Part shown: positions 322 to 25,064 of the stretch, one piece after another
How positions within the stretch are numbered: the first letter of the stretch is position 1
Layout of the letters: each line of letters begins with the position of its first letter
Source: Candidatus Heimdallarchaeota archaeon
GTDB lineage: Archaea > Asgardarchaeota > Heimdallarchaeia > Heimdallarchaeales > Heimdallarchaeaceae
Direction: 5' to 3'
Assembly (NCBI GenBank): GCA_030668875.1
Contig: DAOVER010000016.1
Span: 1-32,000 of the forward strand
Length of the DNA stretch: 32,000 nt
Program-made: the position numbers and the translations under genes
Notes under the pieces: generated by a model
What the model saw: the letters and a program-made list of their open reading frames with translations, nothing else
Databases searched by the model: none
Told to the model about the DNA's origin: nothing

Positions 322-1617
322 ATGAAGGTTTCTAAAACAGACGTTAAATATCTAGTTTTCGAGGGTGGAGGAGGAAAAGGATTGATTTATTTAAGTGCAA
401 TTCAAGCGCTTGAACGATTAGGTGTGTTATCTTATAACACTGTCAATGTAAACGGAAAAGAAGTTTTTCGTTTAGACAGTAAAAAAATCCATGGTGTTGC
501 TGGAACATCTGTTGGTGGACTTACAGCTTTACTTATTGCGGCTGGTTTTACAACAAAGGAAATATTCAATATTTTAACAAGTAACTTAGACGATAAGATT
601 CTTGATTCAGTCGAATTTGGAAAAATACCTACTGTTCATACTTTAGATAGTCCCAGACACATAATTAGTGACAGACCAATCAACAAAGATAGAATGTTAT
701 TTGACGAATACTGGAACACCATTAAGCACTCTAACAAAAGAACTTTGAGAGATTTGTTTAAACTACCAGTAAAGGCTTTTAAAGAATTCAATATGGGTTT
801 TTTCTCAGGACTAGTCAAATGGTATATGGATTACGAATCAAAAAAAGTAGTAATTAAAGAACCTAAACATGAAGTATTTGGCGTTATTCAAGATATAGCA
901 AAAACAAAAACAACAAAATCCGCTATAGACCTTGTCTTAGAAAACTCAGCTGATAGTATGTATAGCTTGAAATATGATCTCGGACTTTTCTTATCTGAAT
1001 CTTTAAGAGATGCAGTTGATGAATTTATTGAGTTCAAATCCGGGATTAAGAATTGTACTTTTGAGCAATTCTATGATACTTTCAAAATTGATCTTGTTCT
1101 TACTGCATTTGATGTTTCAACTAATGAGGTCTATTACTTCAGAAACAATGAAAGGTGGAAGAACCTCTGTGTTGCTGATGCTTTAAGAATGTCTGTAAGT
1201 ATTCCAATGGTATTCAAACCTGTTGTTATGAAAATTGAAGGTGACAAAATCATAACTGTTACTGATGAAATCTCTTCAGCAAATTATATTGTCGATGGTG
1301 GATTGGGTAATAACTTTCCCATACATGTATTCGATAAGGAAGATTCTGACAGTTTAAACTCTCATGTGTTAGGTTTCAGACTTATAACAGCTAGGCCTTT
1401 CGTAGAAGGGGAAACAACATTTTTTGGTTACCTGGAAAATGTTTTCATTTCTCTACTTAAATTAACTTCAGAATCACAATTAAAAAGAGAGTCTGAGAGA
1501 GATCAAACTATTGCTCTAAACACTGAAGGTATTAACTTCTTAAACTTTACATTTGAGACTATCTCTGAAGAAACACTCACAGAAGCAAGAAAATTAACAT
1601 TTTCGTACTTTGAATGA
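322..1617 (+). CDS. Patatin-like phospholipase (ExoU/VipD-like subgroup), paralogue 1
   Basis: Oxyanion motif FEGGGGKG, nucleophile motif GTSVG (GxSxG), RMSVSIP, and catalytic Asp motif VDGG. RBS GAGGT lies upstream of the ATG. Confidence 0.9.
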   Translation: MKVSKTDVKYLVFEGGGGKGLIYLSAIQALERLGVLSYNTVNVNGKEVFRLDSKKIHGVAGTSVGGLTALLIAAGFTTKEIFNILTSNLDDKILDSVEFGKIPTVHTLDSPRHIISDRPINKDRMLFDEYWNTIKHSNKRTLRDLFKLPVKAFKEFNMGFFSGLVKWYMDYESKKVVIKEPKHEVFGVIQDIAKTKTTKSAIDLVLENSADSMYSLKYDLGLFLSESLRDAVDEFIEFKSGIKNCTFEQFYDTFKIDLVLTAFDVSTNEVYYFRNNERWKNLCVADALRMSVSIPMVFKPVVMKIEGDKIITVTDEISSANYIVDGGLGNNFPIHVFDKEDSDSLNSHVLGFRLITARPFVEGETTFFGYLENVFISLLKLTSESQLKRESERDQTIALNTEGINFLNFTFETISEETLTEARKLTFSYFE

Positions 1618-14653: not shown

Positions 14654-15446
14654 CTAAATCTGCTTAAGGACTTTCCATGCTTCAGTTTCTATTTCATATG
14701 CTTCTTTGATTCTGGTTTTAAGTTTTTCAAAGAATGGATCATAATTCTTCACTTCTTTTTTAGCATCTTCAAGAGCTTGTAACATCTCGTTATCAAGCTT
14801 ACTTAGATCTTTTTGGTAGGTTTCTCCAGATTCTTCTTGTATTTTATTGTTCTCTATCATAATTTCACGAAGTTTCTTTAGAGAGGATAATTCATCTGGA
14901 AGAAGAGTTATTGCTACTTCATCCCATTTTTCTTCAGCTTTTGCAAGCTCCAGAGGTCTTTCATAAAGAGCTGTTATGCGATAATTAGAATTTGATTCTC
15001 TTGCAGATTGGAGCATCTTCTTTAGTCTTTCTTTTCTCATTTCTATTGATTCAATATATTTGTCTAAACACTGTATTACATCAGCGAACTCAAGAATATC
15101 TATGTAAGCAATTCCAAGCTCAAAAGGGGATATTGGCTTCGTATTTATTGAAAGAACATCTTTCAACTTCTTGCTTAATTCTGTTCTTCCTGTTGAAGTT
15201 ATTGTGTAGATGCGTCTAGAAGGTTTGCCTGTTGAATGTTTAATAGTGCTTTCTACAAGATTCTTTTGTTCAAGTTTATTCAAAATATAGTAAATTATTC
15301 AAAATATAGTAAATGGAAGAAAAACCCATCTTTGTCCAATATCTCATATTTCGATCTTCTATGATTTTCTCATTTTCATGCACATATAATGAAACTGCTT
15401 TTAGTAATCCAAGTATTGCAACTTCTTTCTCTCCAATCAAAAACAT
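14654..15446 (-). pseudogene. PadR family regulator frameshifted by a 19-bp duplication, with an unrelated-looking C-terminal extension
   Basis: ATG 15446 gives MFLIGEKEVAILGLLK...RNMRYWTKMGFSSIYYILN, then a premature TAA at 15276-15278. Removing one 19-bp copy gives 774 nt and a continuous SIYYILNKLEQKNLVES...RRIYTITSTGR. Confidence 0.85.
15276..15313. repeat. Perfect 19-bp tandem duplication
   Basis: TTATTCAAAATATAGTAAA at 15276-15294 and 15295-15313. Confidence 0.95.
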
Positions 15447-15587: not shown

Positions 15588-16898
15588 CTAAATATCATTA
15601 AAATATTCAAGAGTCTTATCTCTAGACTTTGCTATTATTTCTTCTGGAAAGTGTTCAAAGGTGAAATCAAATATCTTCAAATCCCCTGAATCCAAAGTTA
15701 TTGTTTGATCTCTTTCACTGGGAAATCTTAACTGTAATATTGTTGCATTTTTAAGCAAAGTATAAAGCGTACTTTCAGTAAAATCAACAAAGGAAAGAAT
15801 CTCATTAGGTTTAGTCTTACTAGCAGGAACAAGCGTAAAACCTAGTACGTACCTATTCAATTCATCCAAATTAAGTTGATCAAATGCATGAATTGGGAAG
15901 TTATCCACAACACCACCATCTACCATAAAACTAGCTGATTGAAGATTACCTGTAAATGATTTTATTTTTTTATCTGTTTCTTCAAATAGAACAGGTTTGA
16001 ATACGTAAGGTACGCTAATTGACATTCTAACAGCATCAGCAACGCAAAGATCTTGCCATTTTCCTCTATTTCTGAAATAATAAGCTTCTTTTGTATTTAG
16101 ACAAACAGCAGTAATGACTAAATCAATGTTAAATTCCTTAGCAAACTGCTTAAATGTGCAATTTCTTATTCCCGACTTGTTTTCTATAAGATCATCAAAG
16201 ATTTGTCTTGCCTTTGCACCTAGATAGAAACCATATTGATACTTTAAACTATTTAGGGAATGTAGAGGGTCTTTTAATATTGTCGAAGCAGCTGTTGATG
16301 GTGTTTCTGATTTAAGAATTCCTTGAATTGGAAGCAAATCACCCTCATTTAGATGAGGTTTTGAATTATACTTTTTGACTTCAAAATTCAAATAACCCTT
16401 TAAAAGCAAAGCAAAAAACTGATAACTGATGTTTTTCAACGATTTACGAGGAATGTCCAAGAAACCTTTTAAAGATTTTTCATCTGATTGTAAATAATCT
16501 ATCCAAGAATTTCTCATGTAGCTTTCTATATCATCAAATCTGGGATCTTTTGCAATACAAGTAGGATTCTTTTTTGTATAGATTGTTGGAAAATAACCAA
16601 ATTCTACTGTATCAAGAATATTCTTTCCAAAGTTAGAAATAATAATTTTCTGAATTTCAGTGGAAGTATATCCACAAGCAACAAGCAAAGCTGAAAGTGA
16701 ACCAACAGATGTCCCAGCTATACCTTTAATTTTGTTTGAATCCAATCGTATGGAGGTTTGGTCACCTTTTTTTTCAGTTATATGAGTAATTATATCTAAC
16801 TCTTCCAAAGCTTGAAGTGCCCCAAGATAGGTCACTCCTTTACCACCACCACCCTCAAACGCTAAATATTGAACTTCTTCTTTTGATACCTTTGTCAT
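15588..16898 (-). CDS. Patatin-like phospholipase, paralogue 2
   Basis: FEGGGGKG, GTSVG, RMSISVP, VDGG. Collinear with the 322-1617 protein. Confidence 0.9.
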   Translation of the reverse strand: MTKVSKEEVQYLAFEGGGGKGVTYLGALQALEELDIITHITEKKGDQTSIRLDSNKIKGIAGTSVGSLSALLVACGYTSTEIQKIIISNFGKNILDTVEFGYFPTIYTKKNPTCIAKDPRFDDIESYMRNSWIDYLQSDEKSLKGFLDIPRKSLKNISYQFFALLLKGYLNFEVKKYNSKPHLNEGDLLPIQGILKSETPSTAASTILKDPLHSLNSLKYQYGFYLGAKARQIFDDLIENKSGIRNCTFKQFAKEFNIDLVITAVCLNTKEAYYFRNRGKWQDLCVADAVRMSISVPYVFKPVLFEETDKKIKSFTGNLQSASFMVDGGVVDNFPIHAFDQLNLDELNRYVLGFTLVPASKTKPNEILSFVDFTESTLYTLLKNATILQLRFPSERDQTITLDSGDLKIFDFTFEHFPEEIIAKSRDKTLEYFNDI

Positions 16899-16931
16899 TT
16901 AATCACCATAATTTTTATTATTGTTTGTAAT

Positions 16932-17507
16932 TTAAATTGAATCTATAACTGATTTGATGTATTTACTTCGGCTTTCATGGTCTTGGATAGAGAATCCAAA
17001 CAGTTTTACAAAATCCCTAATGAAAAGCAAAGGATAAAAAAGATCTGCATTTAATTTGACCAATTTAAATTGAATAATTTCTCCTTCATTTATATTTGTG
17101 ATTTCTTTAATAGTTCGAACTAAGTACTTATTGGTTTCATGCAAAGATAATTCGAGATTACTGTCAAAATCTATAGATAAAAATAATTTGTTGCTCATAA
17201 TCGAAATTACTCCAGGATTATTCACCATGTATTCAACTAAAGAATAAGCCCACTTGAGAAGACGTTTTTTTGGGGTAATTTGAGTATCTTTTAGTATATT
17301 TTCAAATTCAGCATACTTTTTACTGAATTTCTTCTCTATTTCTTGAATCAATTTCCTTTTTGTTCCAAAATAGTAGTTAACAGATGCGATATTAACATCC
17401 GCATTTAAAACAATCTCCCTTATTGTGAAATCTAGATTTCCCTTTTCAGCAATAAGTTTAAGTGTTGTATTGATGATTTTATCCTTTTTTGAAATTTTTT
17501 CCTTCAA
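16932..17507 (-). CDS. TetR/AcrR family transcriptional regulator
   Basis: N-terminal HTH: KIINTTLKLIAEKG..FTIREIVLNADVNIASVNYYFGTK..L. Confidence 0.92.
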   Translation of the reverse strand: MKEKISKKDKIINTTLKLIAEKGNLDFTIREIVLNADVNIASVNYYFGTKRKLIQEIEKKFSKKYAEFENILKDTQITPKKRLLKWAYSLVEYMVNNPGVISIMSNKLFLSIDFDSNLELSLHETNKYLVRTIKEITNINEGEIIQFKLVKLNADLFYPLLFIRDFVKLFGFSIQDHESRSKYIKSVIDSI

Positions 17508-17719
17508 GGTTAATTCTCCATTAAATTAAATATCTAGAACTTAATCAAGTTTATGTCTGAACCAATCACTTCTTGAGCTTGTTCAAATATACTGTTAACC
17601 TCTAATATTATATGTTTTCTCTACAGTCTTGATTTTTTTTTACCAATTATTATTGCAATGAAAACAATTATGATATGACACATAACTCAATAAAAACAGA
17701 TATTTAAGACTTATTTTTG

Positions 17720-17757
17720 AAACAACATATTTAAATAGTTGTTTGAAACATGTGTTT
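17720..17757 (+). promoter_or_regulatory. TATA box embedded in an inverted repeat, plus a downstream AAACA-N2-TGTTT operator candidate
   Basis: AAACAAC-a-TATTTAAATA-GTTGTTT at 17720-17744 and AAACA-TG-TGTTT at 17746-17757, in the divergent TetR / radical SAM intergenic region. Confidence 0.55.
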
Positions 17758-19203
17758 ATATCCTCAAACGTGATGGTAATGATAAATGTAAAAAACAAAA
17801 TTAATGGTGCTTTTTTAAATATTGCAACTAGATTTGCAATAAGGAATCCAGAGAAAAATATTCCAAAGATGGTTAATGTCTTTGCACGATTTGCAGCAAA
17901 TTCTGATCAAAAGCAGGCGATCCAATCTATTCAAAATGAAGACAAACCAATGAATAAGTTTCTTATAGATTCCTTTAAAAATATAAATCCAAAGACTGTG
18001 AAACTATTTGTACGTAATCTAGGGGTAAACACATTTATGACTGGAGTAGAAACTTCCCGCAAAGTGATGAGAGAACACCAGTGCAATGTTCCTCTAGCTA
18101 TTCTGATGGATCCAACATCCTCCTGTAATCTGAACTGTACAGGGTGTTGGGCTGCAGATTATGAGAAAACAGATAATTTAAGTTTTGATTTAATGGATAG
18201 GATCATACAAGAAGGAAAAGAACTAGGGATTTATTGGTACCTATATTCAGGTGGAGAACCAACAATCAGAAAGAATGATTTATTAAAATTGGCGAAAAAA
18301 CATCAAGACTGCTTCTTCTTGGCATTTACAAATGCAACTCTGGTAGATGAAGAATTCGCTAAAGCTTTAGCTAATGTTGGAAATTTCACTTTAGCAATAA
18401 GTGTGGAGGGTTTTGAAGAAGAAACGGATTTTCGTCGAGGTAAGGGTACTTATCAAAAGGTAATAAACGCCATGACCCTGCTTAAGAAACATCAAGTCAT
18501 GTTTGGATTTTCTTCTTGTTACCATAATAAGAATGTGGACATTATGGGATCAGAGAAATTTATCGATTATATGATTGAGATGGGAGCAAGTTATGGATGG
18601 CTTTTTACATATATACCAATTGGAAAAGATGCTAAAACTGAACTAATGAGTACTCCAGAACAAAGAGAATTTATGTTTAATCAAGTTCGAAAATTCAGAG
18701 AAACAAAACCTGTTTTCTTAATTGATTTTTGGAATGATGGAGACTATGCGAGAGGGTGTATCGCTGGCGGAAGAAGTTATCTTCATATTAATGCAAATGG
18801 AGATGTTGAACCATGTGCCTTTATCCATTATTCAAATGTTAATATCAAAGATGTAAGCTTATTGGAATCTTTGAAATCGCCATTGTTCAAGCAGTTTAAC
18901 ATACATCAACCATTCAATAAAAACTATTTACGCGTATGTCCACTTCTTGATGTTCCTGATAAATTGAAAGAAATGGTGCATGAATCAAATGCTCGATCTA
19001 CACATATGATTGATGTAGAATCTGTTGATAATCTTACTGACAAATGTCAAAAAGCAGCTAAGAATTGGGCACCAGTAGCTAATAGAATTCGATGTGAATC
19101 TAACAAGTTATCAAATTTTGTAAATTCGAAACCACCTCGATACTGGGATAAAAATTGGGATGGTACTGAGGAAGTTTGGGAGGATTCCAATAAAGATCAT
19201 TAA
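17743..19203 (+). CDS. Radical SAM protein with C-terminal SPASM/twitch-like domain
   Basis: MDPTSSCNLNCTGCWA (CxxxCxxC), SGGEP, FTNATL, SVEG, then GCIAGGRSYLHINANGDVEPC...RVCP. Probable start is ATG 17779. Confidence 0.92.
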   Translation: MKHVFISSNVMVMINVKNKINGAFLNIATRFAIRNPEKNIPKMVNVFARFAANSDQKQAIQSIQNEDKPMNKFLIDSFKNINPKTVKLFVRNLGVNTFMTGVETSRKVMREHQCNVPLAILMDPTSSCNLNCTGCWAADYEKTDNLSFDLMDRIIQEGKELGIYWYLYSGGEPTIRKNDLLKLAKKHQDCFFLAFTNATLVDEEFAKALANVGNFTLAISVEGFEEETDFRRGKGTYQKVINAMTLLKKHQVMFGFSSCYHNKNVDIMGSEKFIDYMIEMGASYGWLFTYIPIGKDAKTELMSTPEQREFMFNQVRKFRETKPVFLIDFWNDGDYARGCIAGGRSYLHINANGDVEPCAFIHYSNVNIKDVSLLESLKSPLFKQFNIHQPFNKNYLRVCPLLDVPDKLKEMVHESNARSTHMIDVESVDNLTDKCQKAAKNWAPVANRIRCESNKLSNFVNSKPPRYWDKNWDGTEEVWEDSNKDH

Positions 19204-19218
19204 ATATGAGGAATACTA

Positions 19219-19305
19219 ATGTTAGACAGATTAAAAGCAAAAACAAAGCAAGTTATAGAATCTTTAAAATCAAGAATTAAGAGAGAGAAAAAAAGCAATC
19301 AGTAG
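19219..19305 (+). CDS. Unannotated 28-aa basic small ORF
   Basis: GAGG RBS, then ATG 19219: MLDRLKAKTKQVIESLKSRIKREKKSNQ*. It starts 15 nt after the radical SAM stop. Confidence 0.45.
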   Translation: MLDRLKAKTKQVIESLKSRIKREKKSNQ

Positions 19306-19373
19306 CAAAAGTTGGATATTAGTGAATTACTGATAGTTCTTTCATTTTTTTTTTATTAAATTAACATTAAGAA

Positions 19374-20426
19374 GTGGTCGTAATGGAACCTGAAACAGTT
19401 GGAAGAAATAAACCTATAGACAAGACAACAACTATCGTAAAAATATCGTTATTAGAGAAGATAATTCAAGAGTTTAGAGATGGGTATTTTCACATTTTTT
19501 TCGCTATTTCTTATCTACTTTTTGCTATTGTTTTACTAGTTATTAATGGGGACGGATTTTTGGGTTTTTCCTTATTATCAGGAATTGTTTTTATTTCAAT
19601 TGTGGTTCTTTCTGCTGTTATTTATTTGTTAAAACCCAATAACTCTAAATCCCCTATTACCTTATTAATTAATAGTCTTCCTTTTTTCATAATTTGGTGT
19701 ACCTATGAGTTAATGGCAAATGTAAAAGAGCACTTAATCTATCCACGCGTTTATACAGAAGTCTTCTATAACTTAGAGATGAAACTATTTGGGTGGATTT
19801 TTGGCGGGATGACTCCTAACCACTGTTTCCATATGACCTTCAATTCTGTTTATACAGATATTATATTTGGGGGCGTTTATTTGTTACATGCTTTGATTCC
19901 AATGGTTTTTGGGTTATACTTATATATAAGAAATGATCGGGAAAATCTCAAATTCCTTGCAATAACTTTCTACACTGCGACATTACTCTCTTTTATACTT
20001 TTTATGATTTTTCCTTCAGCAGCTCCTTGGTATATTGATCAATATGGTTTTACTCAACCTGATATTGCAGTAGATTATACACAAGATATAACAGCTGGTT
20101 TAGGAAGAATCGACGAGATTATAGGAGTGAATCTTTTTTCGTGGTATTATGGAACATTTGAACAAAACTCTTTTGCAGCATTCCCAAGTGTTCATGCTGT
20201 TTACGCATTATCAGCAACCCTTTGTATTCGTCAAAAATGGAAAAAATCACTATATTTAACGATTCCTTATTGTCTAGCCATATTTCTAGGAGCTATCTAT
20301 TTCAATCACCATTTTATTGTCGATATTTTATGTGGTATTATGATATCAACGCTTAGTCATATTGTAGCATTATGTTTAAAAAAGAACATTAGTATATTCC
20401 CTAAGCTGAAATTTCTCAAGTCATAG
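19374..20426 (+). CDS. PAP2-superfamily Aur1/inositolphosphoceramide-synthase-like membrane protein
   Basis: Multi-TM, with FPSAAPWY, FAAFPSVH and YFNHHFIVD motifs. Probable start is ATG 19383. Confidence 0.85.
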   Translation: MVVMEPETVGRNKPIDKTTTIVKISLLEKIIQEFRDGYFHIFFAISYLLFAIVLLVINGDGFLGFSLLSGIVFISIVVLSAVIYLLKPNNSKSPITLLINSLPFFIIWCTYELMANVKEHLIYPRVYTEVFYNLEMKLFGWIFGGMTPNHCFHMTFNSVYTDIIFGGVYLLHALIPMVFGLYLYIRNDRENLKFLAITFYTATLLSFILFMIFPSAAPWYIDQYGFTQPDIAVDYTQDITAGLGRIDEIIGVNLFSWYYGTFEQNSFAAFPSVHAVYALSATLCIRQKWKKSLYLTIPYCLAIFLGAIYFNHHFIVDILCGIMISTLSHIVALCLKKNISIFPKLKFLKS

Positions 20427-20596
20427 ATGCTAATATAAAATATGATTATCCTTCGATAAGATATAGCAAGACTCTCATTTGAACAATACACTTTGTTAAA
20501 TTTCTGATAAAATACATTGATTATATATCATTAAAATTTTTAGTTGACCAACCTTATTTAACCGAATCGTTTAAACTAAAAAATGGAAAAAAATAC

Positions 20597-20644
20597 TTAC
20601 ATATCTGTAAATATATTTCCAGAAATATGGAAATGTTTTTATAA
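20597..20644 (+). promoter_or_regulatory. Overlapping inverted repeats followed by a TATA box (probable leaderless promoter)
   Basis: TTAC-N6-GTAA (20597-20610), ATATTTC-CA-GAAATAT (20613-20628), TTTCCA-N6-TGGAAA (20616-20633), TTTATAA (20638-20644), ATG at 20666. Confidence 0.5.
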
Positions 20645-20665
20645 CTGCTAAAACTTTTCTACTCA

Positions 20666-21529
20666 ATGAAACCTTCTCTTAATTGGAAAGAATTAGAGAT
20701 ACTTAAGATTGTTAATTTGAAGAAGGAAAAGTATAAAACTGCAATAATTAAAGAATTACAGACTATTTTTCCTTTTTTAAAAGATAAACCCTCTAGTTCT
20801 TTCTATCTAATGTTCGACAGATTAAAAAAAGAAGGGCTGATATCAATTGATAAACATGAAGGTGCAGGTCATAAAGCTTTTGTGAATGTTACAGACGAAG
20901 GTCGCATGGTTATAACAGAATCAATGAAAACAGCTTTTGATTATTTTATTCCAACAATAGTTGACAGGTTCATTATTGAAATCGGGATGATTATTGAAGA
21001 AAACTTTAAGAATTTTGATAAGGGAAATCTAGCCATTGTAGCACCAGATATGATCTTATCTAATCCAAGCCTTCAACGACTATTCACCCAAAAGATTCTT
21101 GAGAGTGATATTAGACCATTTAACCTTCAGATGTCTTTTTCCAGTTATAGCAGCTTGGAGGGATATGAAACCATAAAAACTACATACGACGAAATACCTC
21201 TCAAAGATGATTTTTTCTCACTCATAATCTCTTTCTTTTCTCTTGGCTTTCATGAACCAAAATATTACCAAAAACTGCTCAGAGAATATCAACGAGTGCT
21301 TAAGAAGAAGGGTCGGATTATGTTAGTTGAAGCAAGATACTTTTATAGTATACTTGAACAAAGCATGATTTCATTTATTGGGGATTTGAACCCCATAAAA
21401 AAGGATTTGAACATAGATTCAAATCAATTTCGACGAGAGGATTTTCAAGAATTAATGCAAGATATATTTCCTAAATCGAGTTTTGTAGGCGATTTTGCTG
21501 AGATTCTTGTTTGCATAGGGGAAAAATGA
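20666..21529 (+). CDS. PadR-like winged HTH fused to a degenerate class I methyltransferase-like domain
   Basis: N-terminus ILKIV...SSSFYLMFDRLKKEGLI...VTDEG. C-terminus EIPLKDDFFSLIISFFSL...LREYQRVLKKKGRIMLVE. No GxGxG SAM-binding motif is visible. Confidence 0.7.
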   Translation: MKPSLNWKELEILKIVNLKKEKYKTAIIKELQTIFPFLKDKPSSSFYLMFDRLKKEGLISIDKHEGAGHKAFVNVTDEGRMVITESMKTAFDYFIPTIVDRFIIEIGMIIEENFKNFDKGNLAIVAPDMILSNPSLQRLFTQKILESDIRPFNLQMSFSSYSSLEGYETIKTTYDEIPLKDDFFSLIISFFSLGFHEPKYYQKLLREYQRVLKKKGRIMLVEARYFYSILEQSMISFIGDLNPIKKDLNIDSNQFRREDFQELMQDIFPKSSFVGDFAEILVCIGEK

Positions 21530-21538
21530 GGTGAAATT

Positions 21539-24500
21539 TTGAAAAATAACAACAACAAAAAGAATGGTAAATCTGTATTCGCAAAAATCGCGGAAATTAC
21601 AGAAAAATATCGATGGTTTATCCTAATTACTTGGATAGTACTTGCATCAGTAGCAGCACCTTGGGCTATAAATATAGGTGATAAACTTGAAACTGACGAA
21701 ACAGCGTTTCTTGGTGAAACACCAGCAGGTGTAGGATTGGATATCTTAGCGGATAAATTTCCTGAATTTAGCAGTAGCTTTGTAGCAGTGATTGATGGGT
21801 TAGAAGAATCAGACTTAACATCACAGAACTTTACGAATTTTGTGAAGAGTTTAGAAAGCACTTTTGAAGATGAATCAGCCTATCCTTATATTGATTCAAT
21901 TCTATCAATTTATTCGGTACTAGAGGATTTACAGACATTTTACAATGTTACTTTAGATGAGGTACAGACTTTTCTAAATGTTACATTTACTGAACAAATT
22001 CCTTTGATGTATGATTATATCAGCTTAGCAAATGAAACAACAAAAGGATTGATAGATTTATTAGAACAAGTTCCTCTTTACTACTTATTTGCTTGGTCTG
22101 ATTTCTCTAAATTCATTTATTATACAAATAATCAAACAAATGCATATTCAAACGGTTTTTTCAATTCAACTGAATATGTACTTATGAATAATTGGACTAT
22201 GTTTGATAATACTACTTTAGATATGTATCTTATGTCAACTCTTCCATTAGCTCCTGTTATTCCAGCGATGCTAGCAGATCCATATTTGGCAGATAACATG
22301 ACTTCAGTTTTAGCATTTCAAGTTGTGAATGCTTCAATGTCAGCAATGTATAATGAATCAGAATACGGAATTCCTTACTTAAACTCGCTAAGTTATAATT
22401 ATCTCTTGCTTTTGAATGCAACGTTTGATACTATCCGTTTATCAAGTTTCCTTCCACAAAATGCTTTCTTTGATGATTATTATGCAACTTCTGATCCGAT
22501 TTTGACTGATTTTCAACAAGGAATGCTTTCACAACTAAACGTGATAGGTAATCTTTCTACATTAAAACCAAGTATGAAGACTCAATCAGGACAGCTATTA
22601 GTTGATTTGCTACCTCCAGGTTCTGAAGAGCAATCACTTCTCCAAATGGCATATATGTTAAGAGAAGAAAATTATGAAACAAGCATTATTTATAAACAGA
22701 CATTAATCAGTTCAATAACTCAAGCTGTAAATGCTTCATTTTCAACGTTGCTAGAAAATTTCACAATAAGTGGTTTTGATTTTGATCCAGAGATGTTCTT
22801 CAAAGATTTTGATGTAGAAGGAATGGTAACTTCGCTTTATGAAACACCATTATTTATGCTAGATATTGTTACTACAATGATGATACAGCAATTTTCACTT
22901 CTCGTTAATCAGAAAATAGCTCAGATCATGCCTTATCCTACCATAGTAACTGATTTACCTGCAGATATTTACTACAGTTTAATAAGTTCAGATAATTCAA
23001 CTATGGTTATTGCTATATTTCTGTCAGACGTGGATGAATCAACAGATTTGGGAATCTACACACCAGATATTAGAGCAAAAATAGCTGAAATAAAAAGTGA
23101 TACAGATGTAACTATCGACATACATCTGACTGGGACGCTTGCATTATTGTATGATTTAGAATATGTAATGGCTTCTGATTTTGAAAATACTGATATAACG
23201 TCTATACTTTTCGTTTTAGGAGTGCTAGTTATTGTGTTCTTGTCACCATTTACACCTTTCGTTCCTTTAATAGCAATTGGTATGGGTTTAATGATTGTTA
23301 ATGCATTGTTCATGTTAATGTCGAACGTTATTATGATGTCTTCGTATACCGTAATCATTACGTCTATAGTAATGATGGGAGCAGGTGTAGATTATTGCAT
23401 TTTCATGATTTTTCGTTATAAAGAACAACGAAGAAAAGGTGATACAAAAGAAAAATCAATTGTAGAAACAACAAAGAAAATTGGCGAATCAGTAATTACA
23501 TCTGGTATAACAGTTATGATTGGTTTCGGAGCTTTATTATTCTCTAAGTTTTCCTTGCTGAGATTAATGGGATTAGGTCCACTATTGGGTATAGCTATTT
23601 CTTTACTTATAGCACTAACTTTGATTCCTGTTATTTTACATCTGCTTGGAGACAAGATTTATTGGCCAAGAATGGGGAGAAATGGTAAGAAAGAGAAGAA
23701 GGAGAAGAAGGAGAAAAAAGATGTTGATGAAAGTAAACCAGAAAAAAGCAATCCTTTGTTAGAGAAAGTGACACACTTTACTCTGAAGCATCCTCTAGTT
23801 GTTATTGGTCTTTTCTTACTCATTTCCAGTCCATTAGTGTATTTTGGTGTGACTGGTGAGCAGAGCTATGATATAACTTCAACACTTCCTAGTTCAATGG
23901 ATAGTATAGCTGGATCAAACATACTAGCAAATGAATTTGTTGTAAGTGAATTGCAACCAATTCAAGTACTCTTGATATGGAATGAATCCTTAACTCTTAA
24001 TGAATCAACAGGTCTTCCTGAAGAAGCAAAGTTAATTGCGCTAGAAAGCCTTATATCTCATATTGTAACGAACTATGACAATGTTTCTAACATTCATACA
24101 ATAACGCGTCCTAATGGTGAATATATCCCACCAGAGATGATAGATACTATCCACTTAGAACAAATGCAACGATACATTTCGGATGATAATACCACAATAA
24201 TGTTGATGATATATCTGGAACTTGACCCATTTGGAAAAGAAGCTTTAGATGTAGCACAAGACCTGATCACAAATCTAGGTACAGCAGTTTCAGAAGAACT
24301 GGCTTTTCAGGATACAGTAATTTTCATTACTGGGATGACCGCACTTTACTCAGAACTTAACAATATGATGGTTGTAGATACTCCAATAATAATAACATTT
24401 ACAGTTGTAGGTATTTTCCTCGTATTATTATTTCTACTCGGTTCAGTTTTCACACCTATTAGGTTAGAATTAACTATACTATTATCGGTTTTCATCAGTT

Positions 24501-24946
24501 TAGGTGCAACAAATTTGGTTTTCTATCATGGTTTAGGACAACCTATAGTCTGGTTTCTACCTGTATTGTTGTTTGTAACAATGTTTGGTCTTGGAATGGA
24601 TTTTGATATTCTTCTTGTTTCTCGAATCAAAGAAGAGATAGAGAAAGGAGCTACTGACAAGGAAGCAACATTCAAAGCTGTAAAAAGTACTTCAAAAATG
24701 ATTCTAAGCGCTGGATTTATTATGTCTGCATCATTCTTCTCATTGATGTTGTCACAGTTATGGCCGTTAAAAATCATAGGATTTGCTATAGGATTCGCAG
24801 TAATTTTGGATGCTACAGTTGTTCGACTGTTTCTTGTACCTGCTCTAATGATGGTGCTTAAGAAACTAAATTGGTGGCCATATTGGAGAATATCAAAGGA
24901 AACAGTTATGAAAAATTACGCAAAGAACAATAATAAAAAAGACTAA
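21539..24946 (+). CDS. MMPL/RND family transporter with a large extracellular insertion
   Basis: Two repeats with GAGVDYCIFMIFRYKE and GLGMDFDILLVSRIKEE, GESVITSGITV, and LDATVVRLFLVPALM. TTG start after AGGTGA. Confidence 0.92.
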   Translation: MKNNNNKKNGKSVFAKIAEITEKYRWFILITWIVLASVAAPWAINIGDKLETDETAFLGETPAGVGLDILADKFPEFSSSFVAVIDGLEESDLTSQNFTNFVKSLESTFEDESAYPYIDSILSIYSVLEDLQTFYNVTLDEVQTFLNVTFTEQIPLMYDYISLANETTKGLIDLLEQVPLYYLFAWSDFSKFIYYTNNQTNAYSNGFFNSTEYVLMNNWTMFDNTTLDMYLMSTLPLAPVIPAMLADPYLADNMTSVLAFQVVNASMSAMYNESEYGIPYLNSLSYNYLLLLNATFDTIRLSSFLPQNAFFDDYYATSDPILTDFQQGMLSQLNVIGNLSTLKPSMKTQSGQLLVDLLPPGSEEQSLLQMAYMLREENYETSIIYKQTLISSITQAVNASFSTLLENFTISGFDFDPEMFFKDFDVEGMVTSLYETPLFMLDIVTTMMIQQFSLLVNQKIAQIMPYPTIVTDLPADIYYSLISSDNSTMVIAIFLSDVDESTDLGIYTPDIRAKIAEIKSDTDVTIDIHLTGTLALLYDLEYVMASDFENTDITSILFVLGVLVIVFLSPFTPFVPLIAIGMGLMIVNALFMLMSNVIMMSSYTVIITSIVMMGAGVDYCIFMIFRYKEQRRKGDTKEKSIVETTKKIGESVITSGITVMIGFGALLFSKFSLLRLMGLGPLLGIAISLLIALTLIPVILHLLGDKIYWPRMGRNGKKEKKEKKEKKDVDESKPEKSNPLLEKVTHFTLKHPLVVIGLFLLISSPLVYFGVTGEQSYDITSTLPSSMDSIAGSNILANEFVVSELQPIQVLLIWNESLTLNESTGLPEEAKLIALESLISHIVTNYDNVSNIHTITRPNGEYIPPEMIDTIHLEQMQRYISDDNTTIMLMIYLELDPFGKEALDVAQDLITNLGTAVSEELAFQDTVIFITGMTALYSELNNMMVVDTPIIITFTVVGIFLVLLFLLGSVFTPIRLELTILLSVFISLGATNLVFYHGLGQPIVWFLPVLLFVTMFGLGMDFDILLVSRIKEEIEKGATDKEATFKAVKSTSKMILSAGFIMSASFFSLMLSQLWPLKIIGFAIGFAVILDATVVRLFLVPALMMVLKKLNWWPYWRISKETVMKNYAKNNNKKD

Positions 24947-25064
24947 CTTAACGTGTTAGTCTCGTTCCTTTTTTGTAATCAATTTTCTCTTTTGTTATTA
25001 TTCAGTTTCTTAGTATTCACAAAACTAGAAAGTAATAAAAACAGAAGAAGGTAACTCCTTCCTC

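Follow-up and report, generated by a model that had tools for sequence, protein, structure and literature searches.

A putative TetR-controlled lipid-remodelling module with an Mss-family radical SAM enzyme and an Aur1-type PAP2 protein, and an adjoining efflux pair, in a Heimdallarchaeota genome

The membrane-spanning lipid synthases (Mss) of Thermoanaerobacter and Thermotoga link two acyl chains tail to tail, which results in bipolar membrane-spanning lipids (PMC13159169). C–C bonds between lipid tails are also formed by the archaeal radical SAM enzymes Gms (F8AME3) and Tes/GDGT-MAS (7tol). The study that described Mss also recorded homologs in Asgard archaeal genomes (Sahonero-Canavesi et al. 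2022, PMC13159169), so their presence in Asgard archaea has been known since 2022; however, no published description of the gene module reported here was found in the literature. A previous sequence-only reading of this DNA regarded acyl-ester chemistry as notable in an ether-lipid archaeon. As such, however, it is no novelty in Asgard archaea, in which PlsY/PlsC genes and Mss homologs have already been reported (PMC13159169; PMC13400652).

The window analyzed here is a stretch of 32,000 nucleotides from a Candidatus Heimdallarchaeota archaeon (contig DAOVER010000016.1, positions 1–32,000). The six genes that had been listed from sequence were all recovered as open reading frames in the same places, and each family call was confirmed by Pfam. 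The features are:

322–1617, forward strand: third patatin paralog, outside any module (tblastn; Pfam Patatin, 80 bits)
15588–16898, reverse strand: patatin-like acyl-ester hydrolase, second gene of the TetR–patatin unit (Pfam Patatin, 81 bits)
16932–17507, reverse strand: TetR-family regulator, divergent from the radical SAM gene (Pfam TetR_N)
17713–17751, forward strand: putative promoter/operator of the radical SAM operon (inverted-repeat search; block conserved across copies)
17779–19203, forward strand: radical SAM/partial-SPASM enzyme, predicted Mss family (Pfam Radical_SAM and SPASM)
19219–19305, forward strand: probable 28-aa basic amphipathic micropeptide (conserved ORF, GAGG Shine-Dalgarno)
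19374–20426, forward strand: Aur1/IPC-synthase-type PAP2 membrane protein, phospho-headgroup transferase type (PAP2_3, 71 bits)
20619–20644, forward strand: putative promoter region of the PadR-methyltransferase/MMPL unit (palindrome and TATA-like element, from sequence)
20666–21529, forward strand: PadR winged-helix and methyltransferase-like fusion (Pfam PadR, 22 bits; Methyltransf_11, 26 bits)
21539–24946, forward strand: MMPL/HAE3-type RND transporter (Pfam MMPL, 295 bits; TIGR00833, HAE3)

The region is physically contiguous, as a 4.8-kb contig from an independent metagenome study covers positions 20156–24974 with approximately 97% identity. Nevertheless, it is not one conserved locus but two juxtaposed units, Unit A (15588–20426) and Unit B (20619–24946). 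The preferred explanation, which is given about an even chance of being correct, is that Unit A is a TetR-repressed accessory module that would remodel membrane acyl lipids and that Unit B is a separate efflux pair.

In the conserved unit, the patatin and TetR genes diverge from the genes of the radical SAM enzyme, the 28-aa peptide, and the PAP2 protein. The gene order is identical in a second, diverged copy in the same genome (C47 of G000) and in G007, G009, L109, and L110. Outside its own genome, the module was found in two of 23 same-genus genomes and in two metagenome contigs with essentially one sequence. It is rare, present in three of 24 genus genomes with the source genome counted, and therefore dispensable. 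The window copy is an outlier for all four proteins, with identities to the other copies of 74–78% for the radical SAM enzyme, 64–68% for PAP2, 61–63% for TetR, and 51–57% for patatin. This shared pattern of divergence indicates that duplication or relocation affected the unit as a whole and that it has since remained intact. The proposal of a single conserved lipid locus thus stands for the radical SAM, PAP2, patatin, and TetR genes, which are syntenic elsewhere and stayed together through duplication of the whole module, but not for the PadR-methyltransferase and MMPL genes, which are present in none of the other module copies.

It is also conceivable, although decidedly unlikely, that the five genes of Unit A form an accessory island moving as a block and not one pathway, so that the Mss homolog, TetR, and the peptide share a function and PAP2 and patatin are independent passengers. 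The patchy distribution fits such an island, as do a TetR–Mss core, in places with an amphipathic protein, that lacks PAP2 and patatin in Harpocratesius and Promethearchaeota, and PAP2 genes without Mss in other genera; Mss, TetR, and patatin are all missing from the approximately 10 kb around the more distant PAP2 copies. However, order, spacing, and promoter have been kept despite divergence down to 51% protein identity. Furthermore, PAP2 starts 68 nt after the micropeptide, without a separate conserved block that resembles a promoter, and patatin starts 33 nt after the TetR stop codon, a gap that had been correctly noted, together with the divergence of TetR from the radical SAM gene.

Divergent promoters with pairs of palindromic operators are known for TetR repressors, including the lipid-sensing Pseudomonas PsrA and Sulfolobus FadR. 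Unit A resembles them in its divergent TetR gene and in the two palindromes over the core promoter. By contrast, the ligand-binding half of the window TetR has no informative match, matches to solved TetR structures are mostly confined to the DNA-binding N-terminal part, and the operator is putative. Acyl-CoA sensing of the FadR type, which the sequence-only reading had in mind for this TetR, is hypothetical. In the promoter common to all module copies, the TATA box (ATTTAAATA, 17729–17737) is flanked by two TTGTTT-G-AAACAA palindromes, one at 17713–17725 and the other (TTGTTTGAAACA) at 17739–17751. All five Heimdall copies retain this block, and Harpocratesius retains part of it, whereas the remaining spacer diverges. 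Apart from this promoter, paired sites were found only once in the 3.2-Mb genome (C52, spaced 39 nt apart and each with two mismatches), and single palindromes are about as frequent as expected by chance. The radical SAM ORF as listed spans 17743–19203, but its TTG start at 17743 lies inside the conserved operator palindrome; therefore, the radical SAM gene probably starts at ATG 17779. Divergent TetR–radical SAM pairs are also present in Harpocratesius (60% identity) and in a Promethearchaeota MAG (42%).

The radical SAM enzyme has an N-terminal helical domain of approximately 110 residues, the CxxxCxxC motif (C128/C132/C135), and further conserved cysteines C339, C358, C399, and C435. It is 56–63% identical to a large family of proteins from anaerobic bacteria, including 56% over 441 residues to L055, whose 90%-identity cluster includes WP_236911293.1, a protein listed as an “Mss homologe” (PMC13274423, Table S3; 2026). 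The connection to Mss runs through this published homolog list, for which a permissive threshold was used (>30% identity, E < 1e-30). On this basis, the enzyme is predicted to belong to the Mss family. Similarities to the bacterial enzymes (T. ethanolicus WP_129545148.1 and T. maritima Tmari_0825; PMC13159169) include the radical SAM motif, the family of the homolog list, and occurrence in anaerobes only. They differ in that the archaeal gene, whose activity is a prediction, is part of a conserved operon that has a TetR operator and also encodes a micropeptide and a PAP2 protein of the Aur1 type, with patatin on the opposite strand; of the 80 named radical SAM loci, none showed a match to PAP2 or a credible one to patatin.

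Among Swiss-Prot entries, GMGT synthase (Gms) gives the best fold match, aligned over residues 22–399, and it is the sole match in that database that also covers the N-terminal helical domain, which the two proteins share together with the twitch/SPASM layout. In the PDB, the fold matches are to SPASM enzymes of a generic kind, and GDGT-MAS is not among the best 50. Sequence identity to Gms is 21%, and the match to GDGT-MAS reaches only 26 bits, over the core alone; the enzyme is a member of neither family.

The fold match to Gms, which works on isoprenoid tetraethers, bears on an explanation that retains the module and its regulation but changes the substrate. The Mss homolog would act on the archaeon’s own isoprenoid ether lipids as a substitute tetraether or macrocycle synthase, the Aur1-like enzyme would swap archaeal headgroups, and patatin would play a side role. 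In this 92%-complete MAG, a search of the radical SAM ORFs of at least 427 residues yielded no Tes ortholog, which makes isoprenoid lipids a possible substrate, and the genome has a candidate G1P dehydrogenase. In addition, PMC13274423 describes binding of ester phosphatidic acid by Tes, as well as models of Mss that accept archaeal lipids as ligands, and such a role of archaeal homologs was considered in the preprint of the Mss paper. However, the absence of Tes from a MAG is not proof, the enzyme is 56–63% identical to proteins of bacteria with fatty-acid lipids, and the module includes an acyl-ester hydrolase, next to which DegV or GDPD genes are found in other copies. Presence in so few members of the genus would also be odd for a core-lipid enzyme. 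The isoprenoid explanation is considered unlikely, and acyl lipids are the preferred substrate.

The 28-aa ORF downstream of the radical SAM gene, with an AGGAGG/GAGG site 3–9 nt upstream, is present in five of five distinct module copies. It abuts or overlaps the radical SAM stop codon in C47-type copies and appears in L110 as a predicted gene of 33 residues. The ORF shows no third-position bias, and its coding status is thus only probable. A conserved small ORF in this position, the SPASM/twitch architecture, and top PDB fold matches to peptide maturases such as SuiB and SkfB would fit a RiPP system in which the enzyme modifies the peptide. Nevertheless, the peptide has no cysteine and no leader/core organization, its window version has no aromatic residue, the conserved unit includes neither a protease nor an exporter gene, and bacterial orthologs of the enzyme mostly stand alone without a peptide gene. 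In Harpocratesius, this position is taken by an amphipathic repeat protein of 225 residues whose N-terminus is similar. A RiPP system is therefore extremely improbable.

The PAP2 protein aligns to yeast AUR1 structures with an E-value of 5e-12, and its only significant PDB fold matches are those of yeast IPC synthase (9vj4_A and 9ivc_A; E approximately 1e-5, TM 0.55–0.67). Matching AFDB clusters are headed by Aur1/Ipt1 entries. It has in common with Aur1, the catalytic subunit of IPC synthase (PDB 9vj3/9vj4/9ivc), a multi-helix fold, the PSxH and HHxxxD triad (here PSVH and HHFIVD), and the PxAPPWY and GLxRID blocks; the phosphatase motif SRx5Hx3D, in addition to KxxxxxxRP, is absent from its sequence, and Aur1 likewise lacks the C1 phosphatase motif. 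The identity to Aur1 is approximately 22%. Motifs, sequence, and fold agree in placing the protein in the Aur1 type, with predicted transferase activity. Its catalytic loop (residues 213–272) contains one K/R and seven D/E residues, and both termini are basic; the acidic loop is predicted to face outward. The best NCBIfam match is the Bacteroidota phosphoinositol dihydroceramide synthase (NF052609, E 2e-36); however, the score of 125.7 bits is below the cut-off of 480, so equivalence was rejected, and the Heimdall proteins have an additional N-terminal part of approximately 80 residues. The nearest non-Heimdall relatives by sequence are 306-aa Bacteroidota proteins with 28–30% identity, and a 45%-identical PAP2 elsewhere follows an alpha/beta-hydrolase and a DegV gene.

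No module copy of sufficient length lacks the patatin, which has no transmembrane segment. All four paralogs and orthologs examined, including the third paralog, which is 44% identical to the module patatin, retain the oxyanion hole (GGGGKG), the nucleophile (GTSVG), and the aspartate (DGG). The assignment of the three enzymes to lipid-related families (Mss, Aur1-like PAP2, and catalytically intact patatin) was thus borne out.

In the proposed mechanism, TetR dimers on the palindromes (the TTGTTTGAAACAA pair) would block transcription initiation until released by a lipid-derived ligand. The Mss homolog may then couple two glycerolipid acyl chains tail to tail, forming bipolar membrane-spanning lipids. 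PAP2 could transfer a phospho-headgroup from an ordinary phospholipid to a free lipid hydroxyl, possibly that at the far end of the spanning lipid that lacks a headgroup, and patatin may remove or supply acyl chains. The large set of fatty-acid-handling genes, with 15 DegV and three PlsY matches in the genome, suggests a possible source of acyl substrates. However, no PlsC-type acyltransferase was found in the genome and the inositol-phosphate synthase match is below its cut-off; therefore, a supply of diacyl lipids and inositol headgroups is hypothetical.

Unit B has its own putative promoter in the 239-nt spacer after PAP2, where a TTTCCA-N6-TGGAAA palindrome, unlike the TetR operator, precedes the TATA-like TTTTTATAA. 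MMPL starts 9 nt after the fusion gene. The layout resembles PadR- or TetR-regulated MMPL/RND efflux pairs, in which a regulator with its own palindrome precedes the transporter, but the regulator here has a methyltransferase-like C-terminal domain, although both Pfam scores of the fusion are weak, and the pair is not conserved with the lipid module. No close ortholog of the fusion protein was found in 39 relatives, where the best matches are 27–30% identical. The only full-length MMPL relative among 40 genomes (34% identity) is in a genome of another family (G030), where it adjoins a PadR-methyltransferase-like gene without the module. Absence from the other module copies, a separate operator and TATA box, and the occurrence of the pair alone in G030 argue that Unit B is a separate, self-regulated pair with a predicted export function that merely adjoins the module in this strain. 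The sequence-only reading had instead joined all six genes in one pathway ending in the export of modified lipids, which now appears very unlikely. The adjacency is real and was seen in two independent studies, and MMPL/HAE3 and HpnN-like transporters move lipids. A cold-seep contig in X6, in which TetR lies almost directly beside MMPL at a distance of 414 nt, hints at some link between Units A and B.

The patatin and TetR genes are divergent from those encoding the radical SAM/SPASM enzyme, a 28-residue peptide, and the Aur1-like PAP2 membrane protein. This arrangement recurs in other loci, which were identified by tblastn searches with all proteins of the locus.

15588-16898, reverse strand: patatin
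16932-17507, reverse strand: TetR regulator
17713-17725: palindrome TTGTTT-G-AAACAA
17729-17737: archaeal-type TATA box, ATTTAAATA, in the conserved block of the spacer alignment
17739-17751: second palindrome TTGTTT-G-AAACAA
17779-19203, forward strand: radical SAM/SPASM enzyme
19219-19305, forward strand: probable 28-residue peptide
19374-20426, forward strand: Aur1-like PAP2 membrane protein
20666-21529, forward strand: PadR-methyltransferase fusion
21539-24946, forward strand: MMPL transporter

The open reading frames lie exactly where the sequence-only reading had placed them, as determined by an ORF check of the window, and Pfam bore out all six of its family assignments. By the source names of near-identical proteins, the DNA belongs to the Heimdallarchaeaceae, within the Asgard archaea. 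The source metagenome-assembled genome (3.23 Mb, 92% complete, GC content of about 32%) contains a second copy of the module on contig C47. Among the 23 other genomes of the genus, two (G007 and G009) have a copy as well, and so do the metagenome contigs L109 and L110, which are essentially a single sequence. No description of this module, comprising the TetR, patatin, radical SAM enzyme, peptide, and PAP2 protein, was found in the literature searched.

Pairwise identities among the module copies are congruent across the radical SAM enzyme, PAP2, TetR, and patatin. The C47 copy clusters with those from G007, G009, and L109, with 83-93% identity of the radical SAM enzymes. The window copy stands further apart for every protein, with identities of 74-78% for the radical SAM enzyme, 64-68% for PAP2, 61-63% for TetR, and 51-57% for the patatin. 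The congruence of the identities indicates that duplication or transfer involved the unit as one block and that its gene order was kept despite substantial divergence. The order kept through this block duplication or transfer is the best available evidence that the linkage may be under selection. The other copies of the module have a DegV or a glycerophosphodiesterase gene beside the patatin gene. Bacterial orthologs of the radical SAM enzyme are mostly encoded by lone genes, which are at times accompanied by a TetR gene. In other Asgard genomes, the radical SAM gene is divergent from a TetR gene and is followed by a gene for an amphipathic protein or an alpha/beta-hydrolase. More distant copies of PAP2 occur without the radical SAM gene, and one of them comes after an alpha/beta-hydrolase and a DegV gene.

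The PadR-methyltransferase and MMPL genes had been proposed to belong with the module to one syntenic locus of six genes; the proposal does not hold, because none of the five other copies of the module contains either gene. Among 39 relatives, no close ortholog of the window PadR-methyltransferase was found. Between the PAP2 gene and these two genes lies a 239-nt spacer that has a palindrome and a TATA-like box of its own. The only full-length relative of the MMPL transporter among the genomes searched is encoded in G030, a genome from another family, next to a PadR-methyltransferase-like gene, and no module genes were found near it on the stretch fetched. The PadR-methyltransferase and MMPL are read here as a separate efflux pair, and a looser functional link to the module may exist. 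The adjacency of PAP2 to MMPL is real, as it is spanned by a contig from an independent study. A contig from the cold-seep metagenome run X6 (depth 12) joins window positions 17357-17533 to 21524-24476 through 414 other letters. This contig links the start of the TetR gene to the start of the MMPL gene and skips the genes for the radical SAM enzyme, PAP2, and PadR-methyltransferase. The joining of TetR to MMPL in this contig indicates that the locus is structurally variable between natural strains. A second joint from the same run (19373 to 24411, with a 66-letter side) is too weak to interpret.

Alignment of the divergent spacers of all copies identified one conserved block amid diverged sequence, in which palindromes flank the TATA box on both sides. 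Repressors that occlude a core promoter classically have sites laid out in this way, and the obvious candidate repressor for the palindrome pair is the neighbouring TetR. Paired palindromes were found in only one further place in the genome, as a weak pair on contig C52, and single sites are found at approximately the rate expected by chance. Because of its location in a 66-nt tandem repeat, the perfect palindrome at C29:52368 was not accepted as an operator. The TTG codon at 17743 falls inside the conserved promoter and operator block, and therefore it is not the start of the radical SAM gene. The start is probably the ATG at 17779, in agreement with the database protein. Matches of the TetR to lipid-sensing family members, PsrA-like proteins and Sulfolobus FadR, cover the DNA-binding helix-turn-helix only (residues 8-81), and its best match overall is YttP/RefZ (residues 4-118).

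The radical SAM enzyme matches Pfam Radical_SAM with 72 bits, and its CxxxCxxC cluster site (C128-x3-C132-x2-C135) is invariant in the alignment. Thousands of proteins from anaerobes of the Bacillota, Spirochaetota, Synergistota, and further phyla share 56-63% identity with the enzyme. The membrane-spanning lipid synthases (Mss) of T. ethanolicus and T. maritima couple two fatty acyl tails, and homologs of Mss are already known from Asgard genomes (Sahonero-Canavesi et al., PMC13159169). The sequence of the window enzyme points to a homolog of the Mss family, with an indirect link to confirmed Mss through a published list of homologs. It is 56% identical over 441 residues to a protein of [Clostridium] ultunense (L055), whose 90%-identity cluster includes WP_236911293.1. 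Table S3 of the 2026 follow-up paper (PMC13274423) gives this protein as the 'Mss homologe' for Clostridium sp. Cult1. The homology criterion of the Mss authors is at least 30% identity and an E value of at most 1e-30 to 1e-50 to a confirmed Mss. The top bacterial matches of the window enzyme are from species with Mss homologs in the tables of PMC13274423. Thermoanaerobacter and Thermotoga are not among the 80 radical SAM loci listed, and the clusters to which the Sporanaerobacter and Tepidimicrobiaceae proteins belong do not include UniProt entries A0A1M5Z5M3 and A0A4R3KZK4.

Orthology of the enzyme to Tes/GDGT-MAS (MJ0619, 7tol) was rejected, because the match has 26.5 bits, covers residues 112-235 only, and is not in the top 50 Foldseek matches from the PDB. 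No Tes ortholog was found among the ten large radical SAM ORFs of the 92%-complete genome. The Foldseek search of the PDB with the model of the enzyme yielded only generic SPASM, viperin, and MoaA matches, and the matches to solved structures were weak. GMGT synthases form carbon-carbon bonds between lipid tails. The archaeal GMGT synthase Gms is the best Swiss-Prot fold match of the enzyme (E value of 3.8e-15, residues 22-399, 21% identity) and the only one that aligns its N-terminal helical domain. The Gms clade is marked by a COG4001 domain (PMC11214058). The source genome encodes a second SPASM radical SAM enzyme (L166, C33:6205-7557) with an N-terminal extension of about 130 residues, which matches SkfB with 98 bits and GDGT-MAS with 49 bits. 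It belongs to a family other than that of the Mss homologs.

In a quick maximum-likelihood IQ-TREE phylogeny, the named Asgard radical SAM enzymes and the metagenome proteins grouping with them, whose 'Asgard' label comes from this analysis and not from the source annotation, form one clade (SH-aLRT 99) within the bacterial radiation. The remaining Heimdall copies are the sister group of the window enzyme. The tree fits a history of a single acquisition from bacteria with a later duplication. Tight nesting in Spirochaetota clades is seen for the radical SAM genes of L031 and L087, on contigs binned as Methanomicrobiales and Methanosarcinaceae, and is likely to reflect mis-binned contigs or very recent transfer.

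In every copy of the module, the gap between the radical SAM and PAP2 genes contains a short ORF whose product would be a strongly basic, amphipathic peptide of 28-35 residues. The ORF is preceded by AGGAGG or GAGG, abuts or overlaps the radical SAM stop codon in C47-type copies, and has been annotated as a gene by one pipeline in L110. Substitutions in the peptide are mostly conservative, and there is no third-position bias, although in such a short ORF the codon pattern is uninformative. The ORF is probably coding. In Ca. Harpocratesius repetitus, the orthologous radical SAM gene is followed in the same position by a gene for a 225-residue amphipathic repeat protein rich in K, E, and A, the N-terminus of which resembles the micropeptide. 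A SPASM maturase of a RiPP would be expected to have, throughout its family, an adjacent precursor whose core offers cysteine or aromatic residues for modification. The peptide contains no cysteine, aromatic residues are lacking in the window copy, and the bacterial orthologs of the enzyme mostly stand alone; this alternative is therefore very unlikely.

The PAP2 protein is a predicted transferase of the Aur1/IPC-synthase type (PF14378). It aligns to structures of yeast AUR1 over the PSxH and HHxxxD motifs and the Aur1-specific PxAPPWY and GLxRID blocks. The catalytic motifs are PSVH at 271 and HHFIVD at 312, with H274, H312, H313, and D317 invariant in 14 sequences, and the residues of the motifs and blocks are invariant over Heimdall, Bacteroidota, and IPC-synthase-labelled sequences. 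Neither the phosphatase C1 motif KxxxxxxRP nor SRx5Hx3D is present in the protein. The structure model (pLDDT 70) has significant matches in the PDB to two Aur1 structures only, 9vj4_A (E value of 8.4e-6) and 9ivc_A (1e-5), and the next match is LpxE (0.019). AlphaFold clusters matching the protein are headed by Aur1/Ipt1 entries. Assignment as a phosphoinositol dihydroceramide synthase (NF052609 equivalog, Bacteroides) was rejected, as the score of 125.7 bits is below the curated cut-off of 480. The family of the window PAP2 protein is small, with members in 17 of 399 genomes of the phylum, all of them from four families within the order of the window genome. Given the acidic catalytic loop and the two basic termini, the active site is predicted on the outer face because of the positive-inside rule and the analogy with Aur1. 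No description of a link between Asgard archaea and Aur1 or IPC synthase was found in the literature searched. An Asgard affinity of eukaryotic sphingolipid metabolism has recently been reported (PMC12872458), and the placement of a predicted Aur1-type enzyme in Heimdallarchaeia, in one order only of the genomes searched, bears on it.

The catalytic set of the module patatin is intact, with GGGGKG at 17 (oxyanion hole, GGGxK/R), GTSVG at 62 (catalytic serine, GxSxG), and DGG at 327 (aspartate, DG[AG]), and it is the same in all four paralogs. A third patatin paralog at 322-1617 on the forward strand, which is 44% identical, has intact motifs, lies outside any module, and adjoins a gene for a histidine-kinase-like ATPase. 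Just downstream of the patatin gene, a 209-residue ORF (14654-15283, reverse strand) has a match, at its extreme N-terminus, that is confined to the C-terminal half of the PadR domain; this reflects either a wrongly set start or a truncated PadR.

The gene linkage, operator architecture, family assignments, and integrity of motifs have been established for the module. The TetR would repress the module, and a lipid ligand would relieve the repression. The Mss homolog would couple lipids tail-to-tail, PAP2 would transfer a headgroup, and the patatin would deacylate. A spanning lipid would be unable to flip, and its far end would need a headgroup on the outer face, where nucleotide-activated donors would be absent. 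An outward-facing PAP2 transferase could head the far end with an ordinary phospholipid as the donor. Headgroup addition to a non-flipping lipid on the outer face is a speculative explanation of the coupling of Mss to PAP2. We regard it as a long shot that the operon of the Mss homolog, micropeptide, and Aur1-like protein makes bipolar membrane-spanning lipids in this manner.

Eukaryotes have bacterial-type membranes despite their descent from an archaeal host, which is an open problem. Scattered bacterial lipid genes are known in Asgard genomes; however, to our knowledge, no function has been shown for them so far. The compact module, with its defined promoter and operator, exists in two diverged natural copies. 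Therefore, the question is directly testable. If the operon reading is true and the Heimdall PAP2 is sister to the eukaryotic Aur1/IPC synthases, two chemistries would be combined in one regulated unit, and bacterial-type acyl-lipid chemistry together with a eukaryote-type headgroup transferase would already be present in the closest archaeal relatives of eukaryotes. Because the module is rare and accessory, it informs on capacity and not on the core membrane.

The source genome has 15 matches to DegV, the FakB-type fatty-acid-binding family, and three to PlsY (for example, C34:20032-21824 and C87:5617-6225). The predicted handling of fatty acyl groups is therefore extensive. In the control genome set, DegV and PlsY had matches in bacteria only. 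A candidate G1P dehydrogenase was found in the source genome, no PlsC-type acyltransferase was found there, and the MIPS match is under the cut-off (22.7 versus 25 bits). Dak2 matches are not clearly FakA, because their frames are just 221-261 residues long. A 3376-residue open frame with two ketoacyl-synthase matches (C39:9534-13124) resembles a megasynthase of the PKS/FAS type and may be contamination (MAG contamination estimate of 4.4%). On contig C47, an IMP dehydrogenase gene (L013:16965-19745) is split by an intein with LAGLIDADG homing-endonuclease domains.
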